This document shows, piece after piece, positions 1 to 13,966 of a stretch of DNA of 15,067 nt. Position 1 is the stretch's first letter; every line of letters starts with the position of its first letter. A program made the translations under genes and the position numbers. The DNA is from a virus (Duplodnaviria > Heunggongvirae > Uroviricota > Caudoviricetes), in the IMG/VR virus record IMGVR_UViG_2703718826_000001; one strand, written 5' to 3'. Under the pieces are notes generated by a model. The model searched no databases, was not told the origin of the DNA, and saw only the letters and a list, made by a program, of their open reading frames with translations.

Positions 1-196
1 AATAAGTTGGAGTCATCACCCTATCTGCGTTAGGTGTTAATTTTGATGATATTTAAAATTATTTTTCCAGTTTTTTGATTTTTCAACGACTGAATATCGG
101 AAATAGTCAATGACGAACATCAGTATTTTTACATCATTACGTCCGGATCATTGTCGGTTTATCTCCTTTTACTTGTGGTAATTGAGGGATAACAAC

Positions 197-228
197 AAAA
201 AAGGTGAGTTTTGCGACTCACCTTTTTT
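197..228. terminator. bidirectional rho-independent terminator 3' of mlaA
   Basis: A-run 197-202, stem GGTGAGT 203-209 pairing with ACTCACC 216-222, T-run 223-228; forms hairpin plus U-tract on either strand; sits immediately after the mlaA stop (238-240, minus strand). Confidence 0.6.
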
Positions 229-2480: not shown

Positions 2481-2530
2481 GTGATGGTATAAGTGATGGT
2501 ATTCCCCAGTTCGATATGCAGATACCATCA
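2481..2530. promoter_or_regulatory. putative integrase arm-type binding sites (TGATGGTAT repeats)
   Basis: GTGATGGTAT at 2481-2490 and 2493-2502 (12-bp spacing) plus an inverted copy ATACCATCA at 2522-2530; the same tandem pair recurs inside the other island end at 13873-13893. Confidence 0.45.
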
Positions 2531-2540
2531 ATTTACCAAA

Positions 2541-3827
2541 ATGAGTACAGATATGGCCATTAATGTGCTTTCCCCCAAACAGATAGAAAACGCCAAGCCG
2601 AAGACCAATGATTACAAACTTACCGATGGAGGGAGTTTGTATCTACTGGTACGAAAGACTGGTGGAAAATACTGGCGTATGAATTATCGTTTTGATGGAA
2701 AACAAGTGACATTGGCATTAGGGGTCTACCCAGATGTCTCACTTGCAACAGCGCGGAAACGGCGTGATGAAGCCAGGCAACTACTAGCCGATGGTCGTGA
2801 TCCTCGCGAAGCAAAGAAACCCAAAAAGGAAGACCCAATTTCCCCCACGTTCGAGAGTGTTGCCAGAGAGTGGCATAGTGGAACGATGGGGCATCCTGAG
2901 TGGAAAGAGATCACCCGTAAAAAAATTCTCCGAGAAATGGAAAACCACCTCTTTCCTGCCATCGGTTCAAAGCCTATCGATACGCTCAAAACCCGTGACT
3001 TGATGCCGATGCTGGTTGAGATGACTGAGAAAGGAATTGGTGCCACAACGAGCCGGGTAAAAACCACTATGACGAGCATCTTCCGTTATGCAGTGCAACG
3101 TGGAATTGTCGATTACAACCCTGCCCACGATCTAAAAGGTGCAATTACGGCCCCCAAAGTACGACATCGCCCCGCACTACCTCTCGAACGTTTACCTGAA
3201 CTGTTAGCGAAAACGAGAAGTTACACGGGAAGACCATTGACTCGCCTAGCAGTTCTCTTTTCCCTGCACACTTTTGTGCGATCCAGCGAACTACGACATG
3301 CCAGATGGGAGGAGATCGACATTGAAAATGGGCTATGGACGATACCAGGACAACGTGAAGAGATCGCAGGGGTTAAATTCTCAGATCGGGGTGCAAAGAT
3401 GGGGGCTGCTCATTATGTCCCGCTATCTAGTCAGGCTATCGGGGTACTGGAGGATATAAGGAAAATCAGTGGTGAATATCTGCTGGTTTTCCCCGGTGAC
3501 AGCAACCCATATAAACCGATGAGCGAAAACACAGTTAATAAAGCACTGCGAACGATGGGTTACGACACTCAAACTGATGTATGCTTGCATGGGTTCAGGG
3601 CGATGGCCTGCTCTGCACTGACCGAATCAGGACTCTGGTCACGCGATGCAGTTGAACGGCAGATGAGTCACCAAGAAAGAAACGAAGTGCGGGCAGCATA
3701 TGTGCATCTTGCGCAGCACATGCAGGAACGCCGCAGAATGATGCAATGGTGGTCTAATTATCTGGAACTAAATAAGGACGAATTTCATGCTCCTTATGAC
3801 TTATCAGGTATTAACATTATCAATTAA
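2541..3827 (+). CDS. P4-type tyrosine integrase (start uncertain: 2493 GTG, 2541 ATG or 2553 ATG)
   Basis: N-terminal AKPK...Y.L.DGGSLYL...KYWRMNYRFDGKQ motif typical of P4-family integrases; C-terminal catalytic-region residues (R in VRSSELRHARWEEID, HGFRAM, AAYVH); located directly 3' of the tRNA; first 48 nt of the ORF overlap the arm-site repeats, so an internal ATG is preferred. Confidence 0.85.
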   Translation: MSTDMAINVLSPKQIENAKPKTNDYKLTDGGSLYLLVRKTGGKYWRMNYRFDGKQVTLALGVYPDVSLATARKRRDEARQLLADGRDPREAKKPKKEDPISPTFESVAREWHSGTMGHPEWKEITRKKILREMENHLFPAIGSKPIDTLKTRDLMPMLVEMTEKGIGATTSRVKTTMTSIFRYAVQRGIVDYNPAHDLKGAITAPKVRHRPALPLERLPELLAKTRSYTGRPLTRLAVLFSLHTFVRSSELRHARWEEIDIENGLWTIPGQREEIAGVKFSDRGAKMGAAHYVPLSSQAIGVLEDIRKISGEYLLVFPGDSNPYKPMSENTVNKALRTMGYDTQTDVCLHGFRAMACSALTESGLWSRDAVERQMSHQERNEVRAAYVHLAQHMQERRRMMQWWSNYLELNKDEFHAPYDLSGINIIN

Positions 3828-3857: not shown

Positions 3858-4739
3858 ATGCAGCATTCAACAGAGAATGAAACTATATTCTTAGGAAATC
3901 TATGGATTGACAAAAAAATACCACCATTAGAATATTGTTCATTTGAACGCGCTTCAAGACTATTAGAATGCGAGATTGATGATTTATTACACCTATACGA
4001 AATAGGCGCTTTTAATATCGCATTCAAGGCGGATGGACTTGCAGTTAGATTTAATGTTAATTTCCTCAATAAAAATCAGAAAATGGAAATTGACTTAATT
4101 CATCCCGTATTAACTAATCAATCACTAGAGATGGAGTTTTCAACAATATGGTATGACCTTAAAGATGATTCCTTTGAACATTTTGAAAATGGGCTTCAAA
4201 TTATAGGATTTGCCTGTGGTATTTGGTACGCCGATGATATGATAAGTGACATAAAAAATGGATTAGCTATAGATCCAGATTATGAATTCAGGCTTAAACC
4301 GGTAAAAATACGAGATAATGTTTTGATGGCAACGGCCTCATATGAAGGAAATAAGGTCATTGATATTCCATTTGAAGATCTTCTTATCATGCGAAGAGAT
4401 TTAGAGTTAATATGGAAATCAGTAAAAACTGGAATTCCTATGCCAAGTTTACTTACGAAAAGAATTTCATCTGAACCTAAAATCCCCAAGCGATTAAATA
4501 ACACTGCTGAGCATCATGCAAAAAATAGGGAGGGGTTATTAAATGCAGCCATATATATTTTAGCAAAATACCCAAGCGAATGTCGTGGTGAAAGAAAAGA
4601 GATAAGTCCTGAAAAGTGGACTAACGCCATAATTAAACATTTAGGAGAGCTACCTCCAATATTTATCACTAATGAACAAGAAATCTTAAGAAAATTACGA
4701 TTAGCGGTTAATCATGCGGGGTTAAAACAAAAGGGGTAG
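3858..4739 (+). CDS. hypothetical protein (AT-rich orphan cargo gene)
   Basis: 293-aa ORF; markedly AT-rich against GC-rich neighbours; no domain recognised. Confidence 0.6.
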   Translation: MQHSTENETIFLGNLWIDKKIPPLEYCSFERASRLLECEIDDLLHLYEIGAFNIAFKADGLAVRFNVNFLNKNQKMEIDLIHPVLTNQSLEMEFSTIWYDLKDDSFEHFENGLQIIGFACGIWYADDMISDIKNGLAIDPDYEFRLKPVKIRDNVLMATASYEGNKVIDIPFEDLLIMRRDLELIWKSVKTGIPMPSLLTKRISSEPKIPKRLNNTAEHHAKNREGLLNAAIYILAKYPSECRGERKEISPEKWTNAIIKHLGELPPIFITNEQEILRKLRLAVNHAGLKQKG

Positions 4740-4841: not shown

Positions 4842-5057
4842 ATGACATTAAAAACTTATCCTATCACTGGACATGCCCGCCCACGAGCTACTGCTGACTT
4901 TTTGCAAATAAGTACGGTTACTCTCTGGCGCTGGGAAAAGAACAATCCTGAATTTCCCAAATCTATACGCATTTCAAAACGGGTATCTGTTTACGATGCA
5001 CAAGAAATTAGGCAGTGGGTTAAAGCTCAATCAGCAGGATTGGAGGAAGTAGTGTAA
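4842..5057 (+). CDS. alpA: AlpA-family phage regulatory protein (excision regulator, HTH)
   Basis: 71-aa ORF; FLQISTVTLWRWEKNNPEFPKSIRISKRVSVYDAQEIRQWV fits the AlpA/Xis-like pattern (T-I/L-Y/W ... FP.P ... R.V.W ... EI..W). Confidence 0.7.
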   Translation: MTLKTYPITGHARPRATADFLQISTVTLWRWEKNNPEFPKSIRISKRVSVYDAQEIRQWVKAQSAGLEEVV

Positions 5058-5417: not shown

Positions 5418-5594
5418 ATGGCTAAACAGAAGTGTACCTGGTTATTTGCGGCGATCAACCGCAGTCAACGTAATGCCCGTCCGGTGATGTTAAGGATCAT
5501 CGCAGATAACGAACGATCAGCGCGGCGCAGACTTGCCCCGGACTATGTACTGAGCTTTGCCGGGCGCATTCCCTGCGGAGGTGAACATGCGTAA
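5418..5594 (+). CDS. Icd-like host cell-division inhibitor family small protein (putative)
   Basis: 58-aa ORF from the internal ATG with GAGG upstream; pattern W.FAA..R....RPVML.I.A.NE..ARR.LA.DYVLSFAGRIP recalled as typical of Icd-like proteins in P4-like islands. Confidence 0.5.
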   Translation: MAKQKCTWLFAAINRSQRNARPVMLRIIADNERSARRRLAPDYVLSFAGRIPCGGEHA

Positions 5595-5977: not shown

Positions 5978-6262
5978 ATGAATATTTCAAACGGGCACAA
6001 CGGTGCTCAGGGCCACACTTTGCCTGAAAAACACAATACCGGTGCTTTTGCCTATGGGTTGTCAGAGGACAGTTTCGGAAAGCTGACCCGCGCAAGAAAT
6101 GCCTGCGACATGCTCCAGCTTCTCTTTTCTGAATACCCGTCTCAGGCCGGAGCACTGGACGCTGGCTGTGCGCATGGTGTCGCCGCGCTGATGGAGTACC
6201 TGCTGGCAGATTTGACGGATATTGCACACAGCTGCGCACTGATTGAAGGAGGTGCCAGATGA
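5978..6262 (+). CDS. hypothetical protein
   Basis: 94-aa ORF with GGAG upstream; GC-rich like the primase operon; stop overlaps the next start (ATGA). Confidence 0.55.
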   Translation: MNISNGHNGAQGHTLPEKHNTGAFAYGLSEDSFGKLTRARNACDMLQLLFSEYPSQAGALDAGCAHGVAALMEYLLADLTDIAHSCALIEGGAR

Positions 6263-6642
6263 ACCAGCCGCAGGTTTCCATTTTCCCGGCAGAAATGACC
6301 ACCGCGCTTTACCGGCGGGCTATTGCTTCAGCATGGCGGCAGAAAATGCTGAACGAAACTGGCAGTGATCAGTATGGTCCGCACAGCCTGACGGTGGAGC
6401 GTATTGAAATGGCCATTGCGCTGCATATCGAGTGCGTACTGATTAACGAGTACGGCGAAGTGCAGGGCGCCGCTGCCGCGCTGGCACTGCTGACTGACAT
6501 GCTGGAGCCGTCACTGCTGACCGCGCCGCCGGTACTGACCGCGCGCGGCTGTGAAGTGATGGCGGAGATGTACCGCACGCTTCCGGCGGCCTTTGATGAC
6601 TTCTGCAGTACCGGTGTGACGTTGTATGAGGGGGAAGTATGA
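6259..6642 (+). CDS. hypothetical protein
   Basis: 127-aa ORF coupled at both ends by ATGA overlaps (6259-6262 and 6639-6642). Confidence 0.6.
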   Translation: MNQPQVSIFPAEMTTALYRRAIASAWRQKMLNETGSDQYGPHSLTVERIEMAIALHIECVLINEYGEVQGAAAALALLTDMLEPSLLTAPPVLTARGCEVMAEMYRTLPAAFDDFCSTGVTLYEGEV

Positions 6643-9311
6643 CAATACAGACGGTTACGCAGATTTCAGCCGCCGCACGGGGGAAATGGCCCGTTATTCT
6701 GCAGATGCTGCGTATTGATGTACCTGAAAACGGCAGGCACGGTCCCTGCCCGAAATGTGGGGGCAAGGATCGTTTTCGCCTTGATGACCTTGACGGGCGC
6801 GGGACGTGGATCTGCAGCCAGTGTGGCAATGGTGACGGTCTGGATCTGGTTAAGCTCGTAACCGGTTACAGCGTCAGAAAGGCTGCGCAGGAGGTGGCGC
6901 AGGTGCTTAATGTGCCGGATGTGCAGGAACTGCCTGTTAAGCCTGCCAGACAAAAAGCCCCTAAACGCGACATGGGTCTTACCGTGGCGGCGCTGATGAA
7001 AGAGAGCCACACGGGAGAAAGCGCCTATCTGACAGGAAAAGGGTTCGCCGGATACCCGGCCTCTCTGACCGGAAGCGTGCAGCATATCAGCGGTAAGGAT
7101 TTTCCTGCCGGTTCCCTGCTGTTACCACTCACGACCAACACCGGAGCCGTGACCGGTGCACAGCTTATCGCCCCGACGGGTGAAAAAAGCATACTGCCCG
7201 GCAGCACGATGAAAGGCGCGTTTGTGTCGCTCAGCCCGTTACCGTCTGAACCACCGGTACAGGTGGTGATTACCGAAGGTTACGCTACGGCGCTGACGGT
7301 AAGCCAGCTCACTGCCGGATGCGTAGTGGCTGCCATATCTGCGGGCAACCTGCCCAATGTGGCGCAGTCGCTGCGGGCACGCTGGCCTGAGGTAAAAATT
7401 ATCATCGCCGGTGATAACGATTTTCAGGACGGGGGTGAGAATCCCGGCAGAGCCTTTGCTGAACGGGCGGCAAAAGCTGTTGGCGGCTGGATGACGCTGC
7501 CACCAGGAGAGATTAAGGCTGACTGGAATGACTTTCATCGGGAGCACGGTATTACCCGTGCCCGTGAAGCCTTTCGCAACGGTCTGGTACTGTGCGGGGA
7601 AGGCCGCACGCAACTGCCGCACGGGTTCCGTCTTACCCAGGAATATCTCTGGTATGAAAAGCAGGTACAGCGCAACGGTGAGACGGAGATCCAGAACGTC
7701 AAAATATGCAGCCCGCTGCGCGTGACGGCAATCACCTGCGATGCCGATGGCGGTAACTTCGGACGACTGCTGGAATGGGAAGATACGTGGGGTGAGTGTC
7801 GCCGCTGGGCGATGCCGATGGAAATGCTGAGCGGCAGTGGTGAGGAACTGCGCCGGGTACTGCTGGTTAACGGGCTGTCTTATATCAGCACCACCGGTGA
7901 GGCACGCGCACGCCTGATGGAATATATCTCACTGTGTAAACCGGAACGCCGCGTGACCTGCGTCAGTCGTACTGGCTGGCATGGTCAGGTTTACGTCCTG
8001 CAGGATGAGGTCAGCGGTGAAGGTGCAGAGGGTGTCATTCTCCAGACCACTTCCGTGCAGGGGCGTGATTTCCGCGTGTCGGGCACAACAGAGGAATGGC
8101 GGGAGCATGTATCCCGCTACTGTACCGGCAACTCCCGCGTGGCATTTGCTGTCAGCCTGGCCTTTGCTGCACCACTGTTACGGCTGGTTGGTATGGACGG
8201 CGGCGGCTACCACCTCAAAGGGGAATCGACAGACGGTAAGACCACCACCATGAAAGCGGCAACCTCCGTCTGCGGCGGGCCTGACTACTGGCAGACATGG
8301 CGGGCCACCGGCAACGCGCTGGAGGGATGCGCCAGCCGCCGCAACGATGCTGCCATGATGCTTGATGAGATCCGGGAAGTTGACGGACGCGAGGCAGGCA
8401 ATATCGCCTACATGCTGGCAAACGGTCAGGGCAAGGGCCGTGCCGGTACGGACGGTGAGCTGCGTACCCGTAAGCAGTGGCGCCTGTTGTTCTTTTCAAC
8501 TGGCGAGTTGTCTCTGACCGAACATGCGGCAAAGGCCGGTGAGCGTACTTTTGCCGGGATGGAAGTCAGGATGATCCAGATCCCCAGCGATTCCGGGAAG
8601 TTTGGCGTTTTTGAGGAGCTGCACGGCTTCGACAGCGGCAAGGCTCTGGCAGAGCATCTTGAATGGGCCACGTCCTGCTACTACGGTTCGCCGTTCCGGG
8701 AGTGGCTGAAAGCACTGACCGCTGATCTTAACGGACTAACGGCACAGGCAAAATCGCTGATGAAGGAATATGCTGCCGCCCTGACTCCTAAAGATGCAGG
8801 CAATCAGGTGGGCCGGGCTGTGAACCGCTTTGCACTGGTGGCGATGGCAGGTGAACTGGCAACCCGTCTGGGTATCACCGGCTGGCCTGAGGGTGAAGCA
8901 CTGCGGGCAACCCGCGTCTGCCTGAACGCATGGCTGAAAGATCGCGGGCACACCGCCAATCAGGAAGATATCGCCGCACTGGAGCAGGTTCGCAGTTTCT
9001 TTACCGCGAATCAGTACAGCCGCTTTGCAGACTGGTATGACGAGCGCAACCGCCCCGGCAATATGGTGGGCTGGCGCAGGGTGGAGAAAGGCAGTACCGC
9101 GCAGGGCACGGAAGCTGTCACTACGTTCTATGTCATGCCGTCCGGCTGGAAAGAAATCTGCAGGGGATTTGACCCGCGCAAGGTGGCGCGTCTGTGCGTA
9201 GATCGTGGATACCTGCTGCCCTCCACTGATGGCAAACTCCAGACAACCATTCGCCCGCCAGAGATGAATCCCCGCAGGCTCTATGTCTTCAACAGCGAGG
9301 TGCCGGGTTAA
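6639..9311 (+). CDS. P4 alpha-like primase-helicase (zinc-ribbon, Toprim, DUF927/D5-like NTPase)
   Basis: 890 aa; N-terminal CPKCGG...CSQCG zinc ribbon; Toprim-like ITEGYATA and AGDND; Walker A KGESTDGKTT near 8221-8247; GC-rich. Confidence 0.9.
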   Translation: MTIQTVTQISAAARGKWPVILQMLRIDVPENGRHGPCPKCGGKDRFRLDDLDGRGTWICSQCGNGDGLDLVKLVTGYSVRKAAQEVAQVLNVPDVQELPVKPARQKAPKRDMGLTVAALMKESHTGESAYLTGKGFAGYPASLTGSVQHISGKDFPAGSLLLPLTTNTGAVTGAQLIAPTGEKSILPGSTMKGAFVSLSPLPSEPPVQVVITEGYATALTVSQLTAGCVVAAISAGNLPNVAQSLRARWPEVKIIIAGDNDFQDGGENPGRAFAERAAKAVGGWMTLPPGEIKADWNDFHREHGITRAREAFRNGLVLCGEGRTQLPHGFRLTQEYLWYEKQVQRNGETEIQNVKICSPLRVTAITCDADGGNFGRLLEWEDTWGECRRWAMPMEMLSGSGEELRRVLLVNGLSYISTTGEARARLMEYISLCKPERRVTCVSRTGWHGQVYVLQDEVSGEGAEGVILQTTSVQGRDFRVSGTTEEWREHVSRYCTGNSRVAFAVSLAFAAPLLRLVGMDGGGYHLKGESTDGKTTTMKAATSVCGGPDYWQTWRATGNALEGCASRRNDAAMMLDEIREVDGREAGNIAYMLANGQGKGRAGTDGELRTRKQWRLLFFSTGELSLTEHAAKAGERTFAGMEVRMIQIPSDSGKFGVFEELHGFDSGKALAEHLEWATSCYYGSPFREWLKALTADLNGLTAQAKSLMKEYAAALTPKDAGNQVGRAVNRFALVAMAGELATRLGITGWPEGEALRATRVCLNAWLKDRGHTANQEDIAALEQVRSFFTANQYSRFADWYDERNRPGNMVGWRRVEKGSTAQGTEAVTTFYVMPSGWKEICRGFDPRKVARLCVDRGYLLPSTDGKLQTTIRPPEMNPRRLYVFNSEVPG

Positions 9312-9345
9312 GGCTTTGCGTGAGTCTTATTTATTAAGGGTAACA

Positions 9346-9533
9346 GGTGAAACAGGTGGAACAACCGTATTTTACAGGGCTGAACCTGATCCACCTTCTG
9401 AAATAGTGAGGTGGAACAGATGTAACGCCAGCCAATCCGCTGTTCCACCTTGTTACCCGCGATGTTCCACCGGTGCAGTGTATATAAATGCCTTATAAAA
9501 CAAAGCAGTAACACATGTTTCACCTGTTCCACC
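9346..9533. repeat. iteron cluster (putative replication origin / crr-like region)
   Basis: Seven copies of the 9-mer GGTG(G/A)AACA: plus orientation at 9346-9354, 9355-9363, 9410-9418; reverse complement at 9441-9449, 9463-9471, 9516-9524, 9525-9533; an AT-rich stretch at 9481-9500 lies between them; immediately 3' of the primase-helicase gene. Confidence 0.6.
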
Positions 9534-9621
9534 GCATCAGGGACATAAAGCAGACTGAAACAGAGGGTATTTTTATCTGGCTGGCTTTCATAGCCACGTC
9601 TGAATAACCGCAAGCGCCCGT

Positions 9622-9639
9622 TGTGCCAGCCACCACACA
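9622..9639 (+). promoter_or_regulatory. putative Ogr/Delta-type activator site (TGT-N12-ACA) of a late promoter
   Basis: TGT 9622-9624, 12-nt spacer, ACA 9637-9639, about 75-90 bp upstream of the Sid-like ATG (9712); AGGAG Shine-Dalgarno at 9702-9706. Confidence 0.25.
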
Positions 9640-9711
9640 CTGAGCACCGATAGTGTGCTTGTGTCAGCCACGACACAATTGACGTAACGAACCAACCCGA
9701 CAGGAGAAGTC

Positions 9712-10455
9712 ATGAACAACACCGCAGTGAATAACAACCTTTCCACTTTTCCGGCTGTAACGCAGCGGGCACTGGAAACCATGAACACAGCCAGAAACGC
9801 ATGGCTTGAAGCACGTCGTCAGCAGAAAGCGGCAGCGGATAATATTGCGACAATCCGCCAGCGTCGCGCTGAAATGGAAGCCACGACGAACACACTGAAT
9901 GAGGAGTGGCGCACGCTGTTTCGTGAAAGTCAGGGCGTGGTCTCAAAGGAAATGAAAAAACTGCGCACGGAAATTGCGCTGGGACGAGAAACGCTTGAGG
10001 ATTTTGATGAGCTGCTGGCGGCTCAGGAAAGCGAAAATGCACTTTTGCCGCAGAAAGCTGCGGAATTAGCCGGAAAGTATATCCACGCGCATAACATTCT
10101 TGTGGATATTCGCGCAAAACAAATCTGGGAAGATTTTATGCAGTCGCATGGAAAAGCGCTTATTCAGACGCTGAGCCTGCTTAAATCCACAATGGGCCGG
10201 GAAGCCAGTGCCGTTGTGGGTGTGGTGAATTCAGTTAATGACCCGGACACAGTGCTGAAAGACTTTATTCATAAACATATCACCAGACCGGCTCTGGCTA
10301 ACGATGCGATGCCTGAACAGGACCCGGTGTTTAAACTGGCGGGAGTTGCCCCGGATTATGCGGCGCGTCTGGATTTCAGTAATCAACTCTCTCCGGCAGC
10401 TATGCATAAAATAAAGGTTCGTCAGGAACTTGCTGAGAAGGAGAAAGCAGTATGA
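9712..10455 (+). CDS. Sid-like putative capsid size-determination (external scaffold) protein
   Basis: 247 aa, Ala/Glu/Lys/Leu-rich and presumably helical; size and position (first gene of the late operon, before the Psu-like gene) match P4 Sid; N-terminus resembles the Psu N-terminus as I recall it. Confidence 0.55.
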   Translation: MNNTAVNNNLSTFPAVTQRALETMNTARNAWLEARRQQKAAADNIATIRQRRAEMEATTNTLNEEWRTLFRESQGVVSKEMKKLRTEIALGRETLEDFDELLAAQESENALLPQKAAELAGKYIHAHNILVDIRAKQIWEDFMQSHGKALIQTLSLLKSTMGREASAVVGVVNSVNDPDTVLKDFIHKHITRPALANDAMPEQDPVFKLAGVAPDYAARLDFSNQLSPAAMHKIKVRQELAEKEKAV

Positions 10456-11003
10456 CGGCCCGAGGCACACCTGACCAGGCACTTACCAGTTTTCGGAATG
10501 CCCGTATTCTGTGGGCCGGACATAGTGAGAGCCGAAAAGCCGTTGAACAACAGATAACATCTCTCCTCGCTGCCACAGAAAAACCAGCAGATTATGCCCG
10601 ACAGCTCGAATTACTGCGGGAACGTCTGGATGTGCTGAAATGGCAAATTAACTGTGCTGCTCGGGAATGCATTTACTCGCAGCATTTATTGATGGAGGCC
10701 TGCACAGAAGCTGCTCTCAGCAATTTTATGCAGGCGAATGGGGCAGCCCTGACATCTGCACTGGCTCCGTTCCTGAAGGGGCGCGGAGGGGTTGACGTTG
10801 CGTCCCGTATATTACGCAGTGCTCTGGTTCGCCAGCTGGCAATAACACCGCCTGAAATTGCCGGGGATTATCGTGAGATCCTGGATGAATCCGGTTTGAT
10901 GCCAGACCCCGGGATGATTCGTGATTGCCAGGGCTCTTACACCCCGGCACAACATCTGCGTTTTCAGCAACGCCTGAATGACATTAACGATATACAGGAG
11001 TGA
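10452..11003 (+). CDS. psu: Psu-like polarity suppression / capsid decoration protein
   Basis: 183 aa; motifs KWQIN, FMQANGAALTSALAP and YTPAQ match my recollection of P4 Psu; AAGGAG upstream; start overlaps the previous stop (ATGA). Confidence 0.65.
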   Translation: MTARGTPDQALTSFRNARILWAGHSESRKAVEQQITSLLAATEKPADYARQLELLRERLDVLKWQINCAARECIYSQHLLMEACTEAALSNFMQANGAALTSALAPFLKGRGGVDVASRILRSALVRQLAITPPEIAGDYREILDESGLMPDPGMIRDCQGSYTPAQHLRFQQRLNDINDIQE

Positions 11004-11008
11004 TATTA

Positions 11009-11281
11009 ATGGCACTTAAATGTCCGGAATGCGGTACAGTTGCACACGCCAGAACAGCAGCCTATGAAGCTCCGTCAGTTAAACGCTCGTGGTATCAGTG
11101 CCAGAATCTGGAATGTTCCTGCACATTTACGGCACTGGAGAGTGTGGATAAGATAATCATGAAACCCCGGCGCAATGAACAGGAACCAGACAAATCACAA
11201 ACCCCGGTAAAACAACAGCAAACGCTCAATCGCTATGGCTCCGCGTCAAAACTGTCAAGCCGTCAGCAGATTCCTGTCTAA
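11009..11281 (+). CDS. Ogr/Delta-family zinc-finger late transcription activator
   Basis: CPECG...AHARTAAY...YQCQNLECSCTF...ESV closely resembles P2 Ogr (CPLC...AHARTSRY...YHQCQNVNCSATF...ESV); AGGAG 8 nt upstream of the ATG at 11009. Confidence 0.85.
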   Translation: MALKCPECGTVAHARTAAYEAPSVKRSWYQCQNLECSCTFTALESVDKIIMKPRRNEQEPDKSQTPVKQQQTLNRYGSASKLSSRQQIPV

Positions 11282-11766: not shown

Positions 11767-12615
11767 ATGTCAAATAAAGTTGATGTTTTTTTGAGCCGAG
11801 TTAGCCATGTATCACAGTTTGTATTGGTGGCATTTGCTATTTTTGGATATTTTTATACAGTAAGACCAATTTACCAAAAGGAACTTTTATCAGAAGACAT
11901 TGCAAAAAAAGAAGTTGAATTAAATAAATTAAAAACTGCAATGGAAAACTCCCAAAAATTTATAGAGAATAATAAAATCTTACGAAAAGAATTGGAGGGA
12001 AGCATTGCCAAACTTGATTTACAATACAAAGAATCAGAAGAAAAATTAAATTCAATAAATTCTGAACTAAGAAAAACTTTAAATGAACTAAATAAACAAA
12101 AGACCATTGCCAAAAGAGCGGTCAATGCAAACAACAAGAATCTTGAATCTGTTTTCTGGGAGAATTTTTCGGGGCTAGTTGGAGTAGTTTATATTTCTAA
12201 GAGCACAGATTTTGTGAACAATACACTGGGTGACGCCAAAACAGCCTATAATACTCCTAGTAATTTATATATATCTCCTTATGATGCAATTAATGAAGCA
12301 TTAAAAAATGGCAATCATAACTTTATCTCAAGTTCAGAAAATGTCCCTGAAAATATCCGCAACAAAATTCTAGCAAAGATCCGTCGCGCTATTGAAAAAA
12401 ATAAGATTTCATTAACAAAAAAACCTATCGGTTTTGATGAAAAAATTAATAGTCTGATAAAAACTATAGAGTCAACTAAGTTACGCAAAAATGAAAACGA
12501 AATAATGAAAAATAACACTGCAGAAAGAGAACTATCATCTTATATTTTCCTGATAAATGGTCAATCAAGAATCCGCGCCATGGATTTCTTAAAAGACATT
12601 CAACATTTAGACTAA
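11767..12615 (+). CDS. hypothetical membrane-anchored coiled-coil protein (cargo gene A, candidate defence component)
   Basis: 282 aa; AGAGG 4 nt upstream of ATG; one N-terminal hydrophobic helix (VSQFVLVAFAIFGYFYTV) then a Lys/Glu/Asn-rich heptad-like region; strongly AT-rich; no known domain recognised. Confidence 0.75.
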   Translation: MSNKVDVFLSRVSHVSQFVLVAFAIFGYFYTVRPIYQKELLSEDIAKKEVELNKLKTAMENSQKFIENNKILRKELEGSIAKLDLQYKESEEKLNSINSELRKTLNELNKQKTIAKRAVNANNKNLESVFWENFSGLVGVVYISKSTDFVNNTLGDAKTAYNTPSNLYISPYDAINEALKNGNHNFISSSENVPENIRNKILAKIRRAIEKNKISLTKKPIGFDEKINSLIKTIESTKLRKNENEIMKNNTAERELSSYIFLINGQSRIRAMDFLKDIQHLD

Positions 12616-12631
12616 TATTGGATATCTTATA

Positions 12632-13336
12632 ATGAATACTAATACTAAATTTGATTTATGGTTGATTAGAGTAAGTTACATTGCCCAAGTTGGATTGTTT
12701 TTTTTGACAACCTTTACAATATTTTACACAGTAATTCCGATATACCAAAATGCAAATCTGCAGGAATCAATAGCAAAAAAAGAAATCGAATATAAACAAT
12801 TACAAGACAAAGAAAAAACTCTATATTTAAAGTTAAGAAAGGAATATTCAAGAAAATATGTTGTTGATGCAATCTCCCAATGTTCTCCAACAGAAATACT
12901 TATGCGTCAACCATCTGAAGATGACAGTAAAAAATCACATGATGTAAGAATGAAGGAATTAAAAACATTTTTAAACAAAGATATAACCAGTTGCTTTGAA
13001 AAAACTTTTTATAGCAACCCTTACATTAAGGAATTAAGAGACACTGATCAACAAAATATTCTTGTTAAAATTAAAAATTTATCCCCCTCTATAACTAAAC
13101 TACATGAAAAATATAAAGCAGAATTTGATGACGATAGCAAGTTATTGAATACTGGAAAAGAAAAATCGACAAGATTAAAAGAGGTGGAAGATTATTTAAT
13201 AGGAATAGGAGGTTACACAGAAAACAGCAAAAAGGATTTTGAAAACTCATACATAGAATCTGGAGCATATGACTTGGTTGTAAGGTATGGTTTTGAAGTC
13301 AACGATCTATTTTCCAAAACCATCAGAGACAATTAA
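12632..13336 (+). CDS. hypothetical membrane-anchored protein, N-terminal paralogue of gene A (cargo gene B)
   Basis: 234 aa; begins 16 bp after gene A; N-terminal helix (IAQVGLFFLTTFTIFYTV) and the FYTV-PIYQ ... IAKKE motif shared with gene A; divergent C-terminus. Confidence 0.75.
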   Translation: MNTNTKFDLWLIRVSYIAQVGLFFLTTFTIFYTVIPIYQNANLQESIAKKEIEYKQLQDKEKTLYLKLRKEYSRKYVVDAISQCSPTEILMRQPSEDDSKKSHDVRMKELKTFLNKDITSCFEKTFYSNPYIKELRDTDQQNILVKIKNLSPSITKLHEKYKAEFDDDSKLLNTGKEKSTRLKEVEDYLIGIGGYTENSKKDFENSYIESGAYDLVVRYGFEVNDLFSKTIRDN

Positions 13337-13945: not shown

Positions 13946-13966
13946 TTCGATTCCTGCAGGGGACAC
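13946..13966 (+). repeat. attR core: 21-bp direct repeat (partial tRNA 3' end); probably also the attL of the next island
   Basis: Identical to 2347-2367; here followed by CA (13967-13968), i.e. the canonical tRNA CCA end. Confidence 0.8.

Follow-up and report, generated by a model that had tools for sequence, protein, structure and literature searches.

A 9-bp iteron array downstream of the primase-helicase gene of a P4-like satellite is a probable single-part replication origin

What is the role of a cluster of short repeats that lies between the primase-helicase gene and the late genes of a phage satellite, and which protein reads it? The cluster is found in a 15,067-nt stretch of viral DNA (here called the window, meaning the whole stretch that was analyzed), and a preliminary description had taken it for the replication origin or the cis-replication region of the element, by analogy with the ori and crr of phage P4. 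The window carries an 11.6-kb, P4-sized island bounded by a 21-bp direct repeat, TTCGATTCCTGCAGGGGACAC, at 2347-2367 and 13946-13966. This repeat matches the 3′ end of tRNA-Arg(CCT), and the island adjoins mlaA and a gene of the formate/nitrite-transporter family. Pfam searches identified an integrase (2493-3827), AlpA (4842-5057), a DUF5375 protein (6259-6642), the primase-helicase (890 amino acids [aa]; open reading frame [ORF] at 6639-9311, plus strand), which is the proposed initiator, two Psu-family proteins, one sid-like (9712-10455) and the other psu (10452-11003), and an Ogr/Delta zinc-finger protein (11000-11281). The element thus has the gene set of a P4-like satellite: integrase, AlpA, an alpha-like primase, Sid/Psu, and Delta at a tRNA gene. 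Neither epsilon nor cos of P4 was identified in the window. The genes between 2493 and 11281 are all co-directional (int, alpA, primase-helicase, sid, psu, and delta), a PICI-like layout combined with the hijacking genes of P4.

An exact search of both strands of the window for GGTGRAACA found seven copies, all of them packed into the 188 bp between 9346 and 9533. They start at 9346, 9355, and 9410 on the plus strand and at 9441, 9463, 9516, and 9525 on the minus strand. The preliminary description, which had proposed this k-mer search, had placed seven 9-mers at the same positions and ended the primase ORF at 9311, and the search and the ORF listing bore out both. By chance 0.25 copies would be expected, and none of 200 dinucleotide-preserving shuffles got to seven. 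When one mismatch was allowed, an eighth copy appeared within the array (GGTGGATCA, 9387-9395, minus strand), and the 10 other hits were isolated singles across the window, outside the array. In addition, alignment with relatives brought out about four further degenerate copies, at 9337, 9419, 9451, and 9507, all of them conserved as sites of iterons. The site therefore contains about 12 iteron positions: seven exact copies, one copy with a single mismatch, and four decayed copies.

From left to right, the array opens with a plus-strand tandem trio at 9-bp spacing (9337-9363), in which a degenerate AGGGTAACA is followed by GGTGAAACA and GGTGGAACA. Next come the one-mismatch copy on the minus strand and a plus-strand tandem pair (9410-9427) composed of an exact GGTGGAACA and a decayed GATGTAACG. 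These are followed by three inverted copies on the minus strand (9441-9471), exact at 9441-9449 and 9463-9471 and degenerate at 9451-9459 (CGGGTAACA), and by a right tandem trio, also on the minus strand and at 9-bp spacing (9507-9533), with one degenerate copy and then GGTGAAACA and GGTGGAACA. The degenerate first copy begins 26 bp past the stop codon at 9311, and the first exact iteron begins 35 bp past it. The array is bracketed by an 18-nt inverted repeat, 89% complementary, whose two arms are the outer tandem pairs at 9346-9363 and at 9516-9533. Two of the positions that are decayed in the window, 9387-9395 (GGTGGATCA) and 9419-9427 (GATGTAACG), are exact GGTGGAACA copies in the close relatives L003, L005, and L007, which means that the window's copy of the presumed origin has lost some sites.

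Two AT-rich tracts accompany the iterons. The first (9322-9336, 80% AT) precedes the first tandem iterons. The main tract (9477-9510, 74% AT, with an 80% AT core at 9481-9505) is the proposed DNA-unwinding element; it has a GC fraction of 0.275 over 40 bp, and within the intergenic region no 30-bp duplex is less stable. Across the whole window, however, it ranks only within the top 4.7% of the least stable 30-bp segments, which counts against an origin. The preliminary description had set an AT-rich center between the direct and the inverted copies, whereas the tract really lies between the second and third of the exact inverted copies. The array is asymmetric about it, with about nine iteron sites on the left and three on the right, and in the window the iterons directly flanking it are all on the minus strand, two further points against an origin. 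Both tracts were kept in 47 relatives, the first with a mean AT fraction of 0.72 to 0.77 at +11 to +25 from the stop codon and the main one with 0.71 to 0.78 at +166 to +190.

Homologues of the primase-helicase (57 to 100% identity) are abundant in Enterobacterales, and the relatives were drawn from more than 100 loci, 55 from a set with one genome per species and 60 from viral contigs. Nearly all of these relatives have 6 to 14 copies of a 9-mer in the first 250 bp past the stop codon. The offsets of the copies from the stop are also conserved, at about +26/35/44 (plus strand), 77 (minus), 99/108 (plus), 128 to 147 (minus), 158 (plus), and 190 to 220 (minus). The left end is thus made of two or three plus-strand copies at +26/35/44 and the right end of two or three minus-strand copies at +190 to +220, and in many relatives there is a plus-strand copy at about +158, just left of the AT tract. 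In 46 of 52 loci, an unbiased density scan found the densest 8-mer repeat of the whole locus within 250 bp past the stop codon, and no other segment of the loci came near the array's repeat density. Three of the six exceptions had a 10- to 11-copy array of GTGGGAACA about 1.1 kb downstream of the stop. A GTGGGAACA array of 9 to 11 copies, about 1.1 to 1.2 kb past the helicase stop, marks a single lineage (L039, L047, L056, and L116), and this suggests that a gene was inserted there between rep and ori. In the 60 viral-contig loci the position of the array was as in the genome loci.

The array accompanies the helicase gene regardless of what follows (sid, delta, or neither of them). It is also found with distant homologues (31 to 35% identity): Pseudomonas phage phiAH14b has 10 copies of GGGGGAACA directly 3′ of the gene in the same layout, and Klebsiella phage P12620-1 has 11 copies of TGAACCAAC directly 3′ of the gene. 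No clear array was seen past the gene of the distant homologue in Pseudomonas phage vB_Pae_U10. Among 5,426 complete Escherichia coli genomes, 333 carry the array region at 90% identity or more. The preliminary description had made its reading depend on the repeats being kept next to the primases of relatives, and the array indeed stays with the gene in about 100 of them.

The 9-mer itself varies by lineage, while the layout and both AT tracts stay. In addition to GGTGGAACA of the window, the variants included GGTGTAACA, GGGGTAACA, CTGGTAACA, TGGGTAACA, C/GTGGTAACA, and GAGGTAACA, and further relatives carried GTGGATACA, GTGGTTACA, GTGGGAACA, and ATGTAGTACA. In a DNA alignment of 10 sequences, 42 of the 72 iteron columns were invariant compared to 8 of the 89 spacer columns (p = 1e-11). 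All copies keep their register, and the specificity base switches in every one of them at once while the spacers diverge. Such concerted change is expected of sites that are read by one trans-acting protein.

Comparison of the iterons with the proteins showed where that reading might take place. First, in close protein pairs, which were chosen after the data had been inspected, substitutions fell in the last 63 aa when the iterons differed (17 of 73) and not when they were the same (0 of 66, three pairs; Fisher p = 7e-6). A good example is the pair L023 and L024, which has 33 differences in 905 aa and helicase cores that are 99% identical, with GGTGTAACA iterons in one and CTGGTAACA iterons in the other; the differences in the C-terminal domain are at positions 846, 850, 866 (K to R), 870, and 887. 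For L030 and L019, whose iterons carry TAACA and TTACA, respectively, 8 of 18 substitutions are in the last 63 residues, and for L025 and L028 the count is 4 of 22. Second, K866 always occurs with G at iteron base 2, and R866 occurs with T, with A, or with the ATGTAGTACA type, whose register is different. Residue 866 sorted with base 2 without exception in the loci that were classified, 45 from genomes and 59 from viral contigs, an association that is confounded by phylogeny, with perhaps three or four independent switches and with lineages that overlap between the two sets. Third, a sliding-window comparison of protein identity with shared iteron type gave no signal for any segment, the signal being confined to near-identical pairs, and the single protein column that fully discriminated the GGTGG from the GGTGT types was in the primase domain.

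Three genomes contain two elements each, with a different iteron type in each element: Pantoea stewartii (L004 and L046), P. leporis (L013 and L052), and Enterobacter intestinihominis (L042 and L012). In this sample of three genomes, the different iterons of co-resident elements are consistent with selection against cross-talk or incompatibility.

The primase-helicase is composed of a zinc ribbon (aa 32-68), a Toprim_3 domain (209-304), and a DUF927 helicase (330-612) in Pfam, followed by a C-terminal helical region and a winged-helix-like domain. The latter is the proposed iteron-binding domain (aa 828-890 of the predicted structure; codons at 9120-9308, plus strand). Its predicted order is a strand, a helix at 834-841, a second helix at 846-856, and a wing formed by strands 869-871 and 879-884, and K866 is predicted to sit in the loop ahead of the wing. 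The model of the C-terminal structure is of high confidence, yet it comes from a shallow alignment of 51 sequences, none of them below 56% identity, and the first ∼40 residues of the model cannot be relied on. For the helicase core, sequence comparison gave matches to SaPIbov1 Rep (8tch, E = 4e-15) and to SCCmec Cch (5dgk, E = 3e-13). The model of the C-terminal region was structurally closest to SaPIbov1 Rep, to Cch, and to a winged-helix protein in complex with oriT DNA; a sequence profile covering the final 115 residues matched no solved structure. Judged by these matches, the initiator appears to be a Rep/Cch-like helicase (hexameric, AAA+/SF3-like), and the model predicts that it ends in a winged-helix domain. 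The relatives L050, L051, L122, and L061 (phiAH14b) have the DUF927 helicase and the C-terminal domain in a protein of ∼700 aa without a fused primase, and phiAH14b has a separate Toprim gene upstream. It follows that the primase and the helicase act as modules that can be exchanged.

The array at 9337-9533 is most likely the vegetative replication origin of the satellite, and it is predicted to be of the single-part SaPI/PICI type. Since the array fits the SaPI/PICI design and the protein is homologous to the SaPI Rep/Cch class, the origin would be fired by the primase-helicase encoded next to it. The earlier choice between an origin and a cis-replication region holds to the extent that the array is very probably the cis site of the adjacent primase-helicase, as its presence in about 100 relatives and its co-variation with the C terminus indicate; the idea that it is an ori or crr of the P4 alpha type did not stand. 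When the island is induced, the primase-helicase, made from the gene immediately upstream, would bind the 9-bp iterons through its C-terminal winged helix. With several subunits or hexamers bound to either side of it, the AT tract at 9477-9510 would then be distorted and melted, the DUF927 helicase would load itself onto the opened DNA, and the zinc-ribbon/Toprim primase domain of the same protein would supply the host polymerase with its first primers. Which origin each initiator fires would be set by the exact iteron sequence and by a few residues in or near the wing, around K866. We infer that iteron binding, melting, self-loading, and priming could all proceed here without the need for a second cis site.

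This arrangement has close parallels among the staphylococcal pathogenicity islands. SaPI origins are located immediately downstream of rep and have six to twelve iterons around an AT-rich region, with opposed iterons on the two sides of that region; the iterons are read by a C-terminal winged helix of Rep, which loads itself (PMC9371898). The likenesses to the window are several. In SaPIbov1, SaPI1, and SaPI5 the origin is immediately 3′ of the initiator-helicase gene, as it is in the window at 26 to 35 bp past the stop; both have short iterons around an AT region and an initiator with a C-terminal winged helix (predicted, in the case of the window); and in the PriRep of SaPI5 the primase and helicase are fused, as they are here. 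There are differences too. The iterons of SaPIs are 5 to 6 bp long compared to 9 bp in the window, the window's array is asymmetric, and opposed iterons flank the AT tract in SaPIs, whereas in the window the AT-adjacent copies are all on the minus strand and it is the outermost tandem pairs that are inverted. Also, the primase domain of the window protein is of the DnaG/Toprim type that is common to P4 alpha, and its host element is an Enterobacterales P4-like satellite with sid, psu, and delta.

The same origin design occurs in Gram-negative PICIs and is functional in the E. coli island EcCICFT073, where the origin supports plasmid maintenance (PMC6092414). Like the window's element, EcCICFT073 is an E. 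coli island with int and alpA and a single direction of transcription, and its origin has two sets of iterons, CTGTCTACC / GGTAGACAG, that flank an AT-rich region directly 3′ of pri-rep. However, its iteron sequence is different, it has no sid, psu, or delta, and its PriRep is composed of D5_N, DUF5906, and Pox_D5 (the P4 alpha helicase type) rather than DUF927 and bears no similarity to the protein of the window. Since the EcCICFT073 origin follows an unrelated D5-type PriRep, this origin organization is common to two initiator families.

Iteron plasmids offer a further comparison. Their origins (RepA/RepE/Pi type) also combine short repeats, a winged-helix initiator, and an AT-rich unwinding element, and lineage-specific iterons set the specificity. 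Plasmid Rep proteins are not helicases and depend on DnaA and on DnaB-DnaC loading, whereas the initiator of the window is itself a helicase-primase, and no enrichment of DnaA boxes was found. Plasmid iterons serve both initiation and control, and the array could by the same token be mainly a control element, which would titrate or handcuff the initiator (copy number and incompatibility) or block read-through into sid. The different iteron types in the three two-element genomes agree with this, but three genomes are a small sample. It also agrees with the want of a predicted intrinsic terminator between the primase stop and sid. Indeed, neither intrinsic terminators nor sigma-70 promoters were predicted in 9200-9800, so read-through across the presumed origin into the late operon is possible; P4, in contrast, has an annotated terminator between alpha and crr, and none was predicted at 9312-9711 of the window. 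However, control is compatible with origin function and so is not an exclusive explanation, and an AT tract embedded at a fixed, conserved position is a feature of origins, not of titration sites. That the array is mainly a control element is thus unlikely, and an origin remains the preferred reading.

An alternative closer to the preliminary description is a P4-type crr, i.e., a replication enhancer that is bound by the initiator and loops to a separate true origin elsewhere. The P4 octamer given in the preliminary description, TGTTCACC, was correct when checked against the P4 record. In the window, this octamer occurs twice, at 5580 and 13340, which is within chance, and not at all in 9300-9600. 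The resemblance of the array to P4 therefore held for the motif (GGTGAACA in P4 compared to GGTG(G/A)AACA, with one extra base) but not for the exact octamer. In the P4 record, repeat clusters are found at 4291-4590 and 9310-9413, about 4.5 kb apart. One of the two parts, crr, directly follows the alpha stop, between alpha and att/int, and its GGTGAACA repeats surround an AT-rich stretch. The other part, ori, lies just upstream of sid and not between int and the primase, where the preliminary description had expected it. P4 and the window have in common tandem copies at 9- to 11-bp spacing, an embedded AT-rich stretch, a satellite gene set with sid, psu, delta, DUF5375, and AlpA, and homologous primase domains. 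The position after the alpha stop, the repeats around an AT-rich stretch, the similar motif, and the homologous primase domains favor a crr.

Several observations are difficult to reconcile with it, however. The array is also at the position of P4 ori, ∼90 bp upstream of the sid promoter dyads: the gap between the array and the first dyad is 89 bp, compared to 80 bp for the equivalent gap in P4. In P4 the alpha operon is divergent from the sid operon and the late order is sid-delta-psu, whereas the window's genes are co-directional, and because alpha and sid are adjacent and co-directional here, the array holds the P4 crr and P4 ori positions at once. The repeat unit is a type I octamer in P4 and a 9-mer, one base longer, in the window. 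Moreover, P4 has a two-part ori and crr, whereas just one cluster is present in the window and in its relatives. In the relatives the locus's own core 9-mer occurs only 0 to 1 times elsewhere within ±6 kb, and so these too have no second cluster. The preliminary description had likewise found no second cluster, which proved right for the window and the relatives in the exact, one-mismatch, core 9-mer, and density scans.

The protein is not of the P4 type either, beyond its primase. P4 alpha has a zinc ribbon, Toprim, D5_N, DUF5906, and Pox_D5, whereas the window protein has a zinc ribbon, Toprim_3, and DUF927, and P4 alpha aligns with aa 1-316 only, the primase domain, at 38% identity (BLASTP and profile comparison). 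No similarity was found between the C-terminal profile and the C terminus of P4 alpha (hhalign probability, 0.2%), and the P4 alpha structure was absent among the top fold matches listed for the C-terminal region. The initiator, taken earlier for an alpha-type protein, is consequently alpha-like in its primase domain only, with a DUF927 helicase and an unrelated C terminus, although a distant winged-helix relationship may link this C-terminal domain to the origin-binding domain of P4 alpha. The lack of a second cluster and the non-P4 helicase and C-terminal domain weaken the crr explanation, which is quite improbable. One cluster 3′ of rep with an internal AT tract, as seen in the sequence, appears to fit the SaPI/PICI design better than the ori/crr of P4. 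A blastn search of 9300-9720 in distant mode against phage records, including P4, gave no match, and the P4 resemblance is therefore limited to a short motif. The near-identity of GGTGAACA and GGTG(G/A)AACA despite the unrelated binding domains could be due to chance, to convergence, or to an old origin kept by a swapped-in initiator.

The repeats might instead be operator sites for a transcription factor of the late operon (sid-psu-delta), e.g., AlpA or Delta, as they lie upstream of sid and the preliminary description had put the late promoter beside them. However, the probable activator sites are separate from the array. Past the array and before sid are two TGT-N12-ACA dyads (9622-9639 and 9660-9677), spaced 38 bp apart, of which the second begins 52 nt ahead of the sid ATG (9712). 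They sit inside 19-nt direct repeats that are 89% identical. Their geometry is identical to that of the P4 Psid dyads (9493-9510 and 9531-9548, with the sid ATG at 9583), and they are probably where Delta/Ogr activates the late promoter, which would thus be separate from the array. In addition, the array remains beside the helicase gene even where the gene that follows is a different one or is missing, and the iteron changes track the helicase C terminus, all of which makes operator sites a very unlikely explanation. Finally, that the copies are chance repeats or a functionless, decaying relic is extremely improbable and effectively refuted despite the degenerate copies at 9387 and 9419 that are exact in close relatives, given the shuffles, the density scan in relatives, the far greater conservation of iteron columns than of spacers, the identity of the region in so many E. 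coli genomes, and the conservation of the array across Enterobacterales and in the Pseudomonas and Klebsiella phage records.

The design proposed here, a single iteron cluster read by a self-loading initiator, has precedents in the phage-inducible islands of staphylococci and E. coli, and as such the array is a well-supported and fairly ordinary feature that leaves the general picture of island replication unchanged. It does locate the likely origin and the likely determinant of initiator specificity for a satellite family that is common in E. coli and other Enterobacterales, and it indicates that, behind one and the same primase domain, P4-like satellites use helicase/origin-binding modules of at least two kinds that are not homologous. 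The more interesting part is the specificity code together with the different iterons of co-resident elements, and this part is unproven. A bolder proposal, for which we would put the chances at somewhat less than even, is that these elements form a large, undescribed P4-like branch in which the helicase/origin-binding part of alpha was swapped for a DUF927 self-loader of the SaPI Rep/Cch type, ori and crr collapsed into one origin, and a code relating wing residues to iteron bases gave rise to many orthogonal replicons. If so, the code would let several satellites share a cell without cross-firing or incompatibility, and the P4-like iteron would be either an ancestral origin kept by the swapped-in initiator or a product of convergence. 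A literature search found no mention of DUF927 together with P4-like satellites, and the census papers on P4-like elements handle alpha as one component and do not discuss origins.

The matched initiator-iteron variants, including near-isogenic pairs such as L023/L024, make the recognition rules of SaPI-type self-loading helicases testable. Paired with the gene, the 9300-9600 region could be turned into a set of orthogonal mini-replicons. Satellites could also be classified, and their incompatibility predicted, by iteron type.

Other features of the window were also inspected. An Rfam search matched the tRNA alone. Two ORFs that overlap the region of the array, 9283-9498 (plus strand) and 9308-9676 (minus strand), were rejected as genes, having no Pfam hit and no RefSeq gene annotated there. 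Three further ORFs, 3858-4739 (293 aa), 11767-12615 (282 aa), and 12632-13336 (234 aa), had neither a Pfam nor a PADLOC match; the latter two fall between delta and attR, where the GC content is low, a typical site of satellite accessory or defense cargo.
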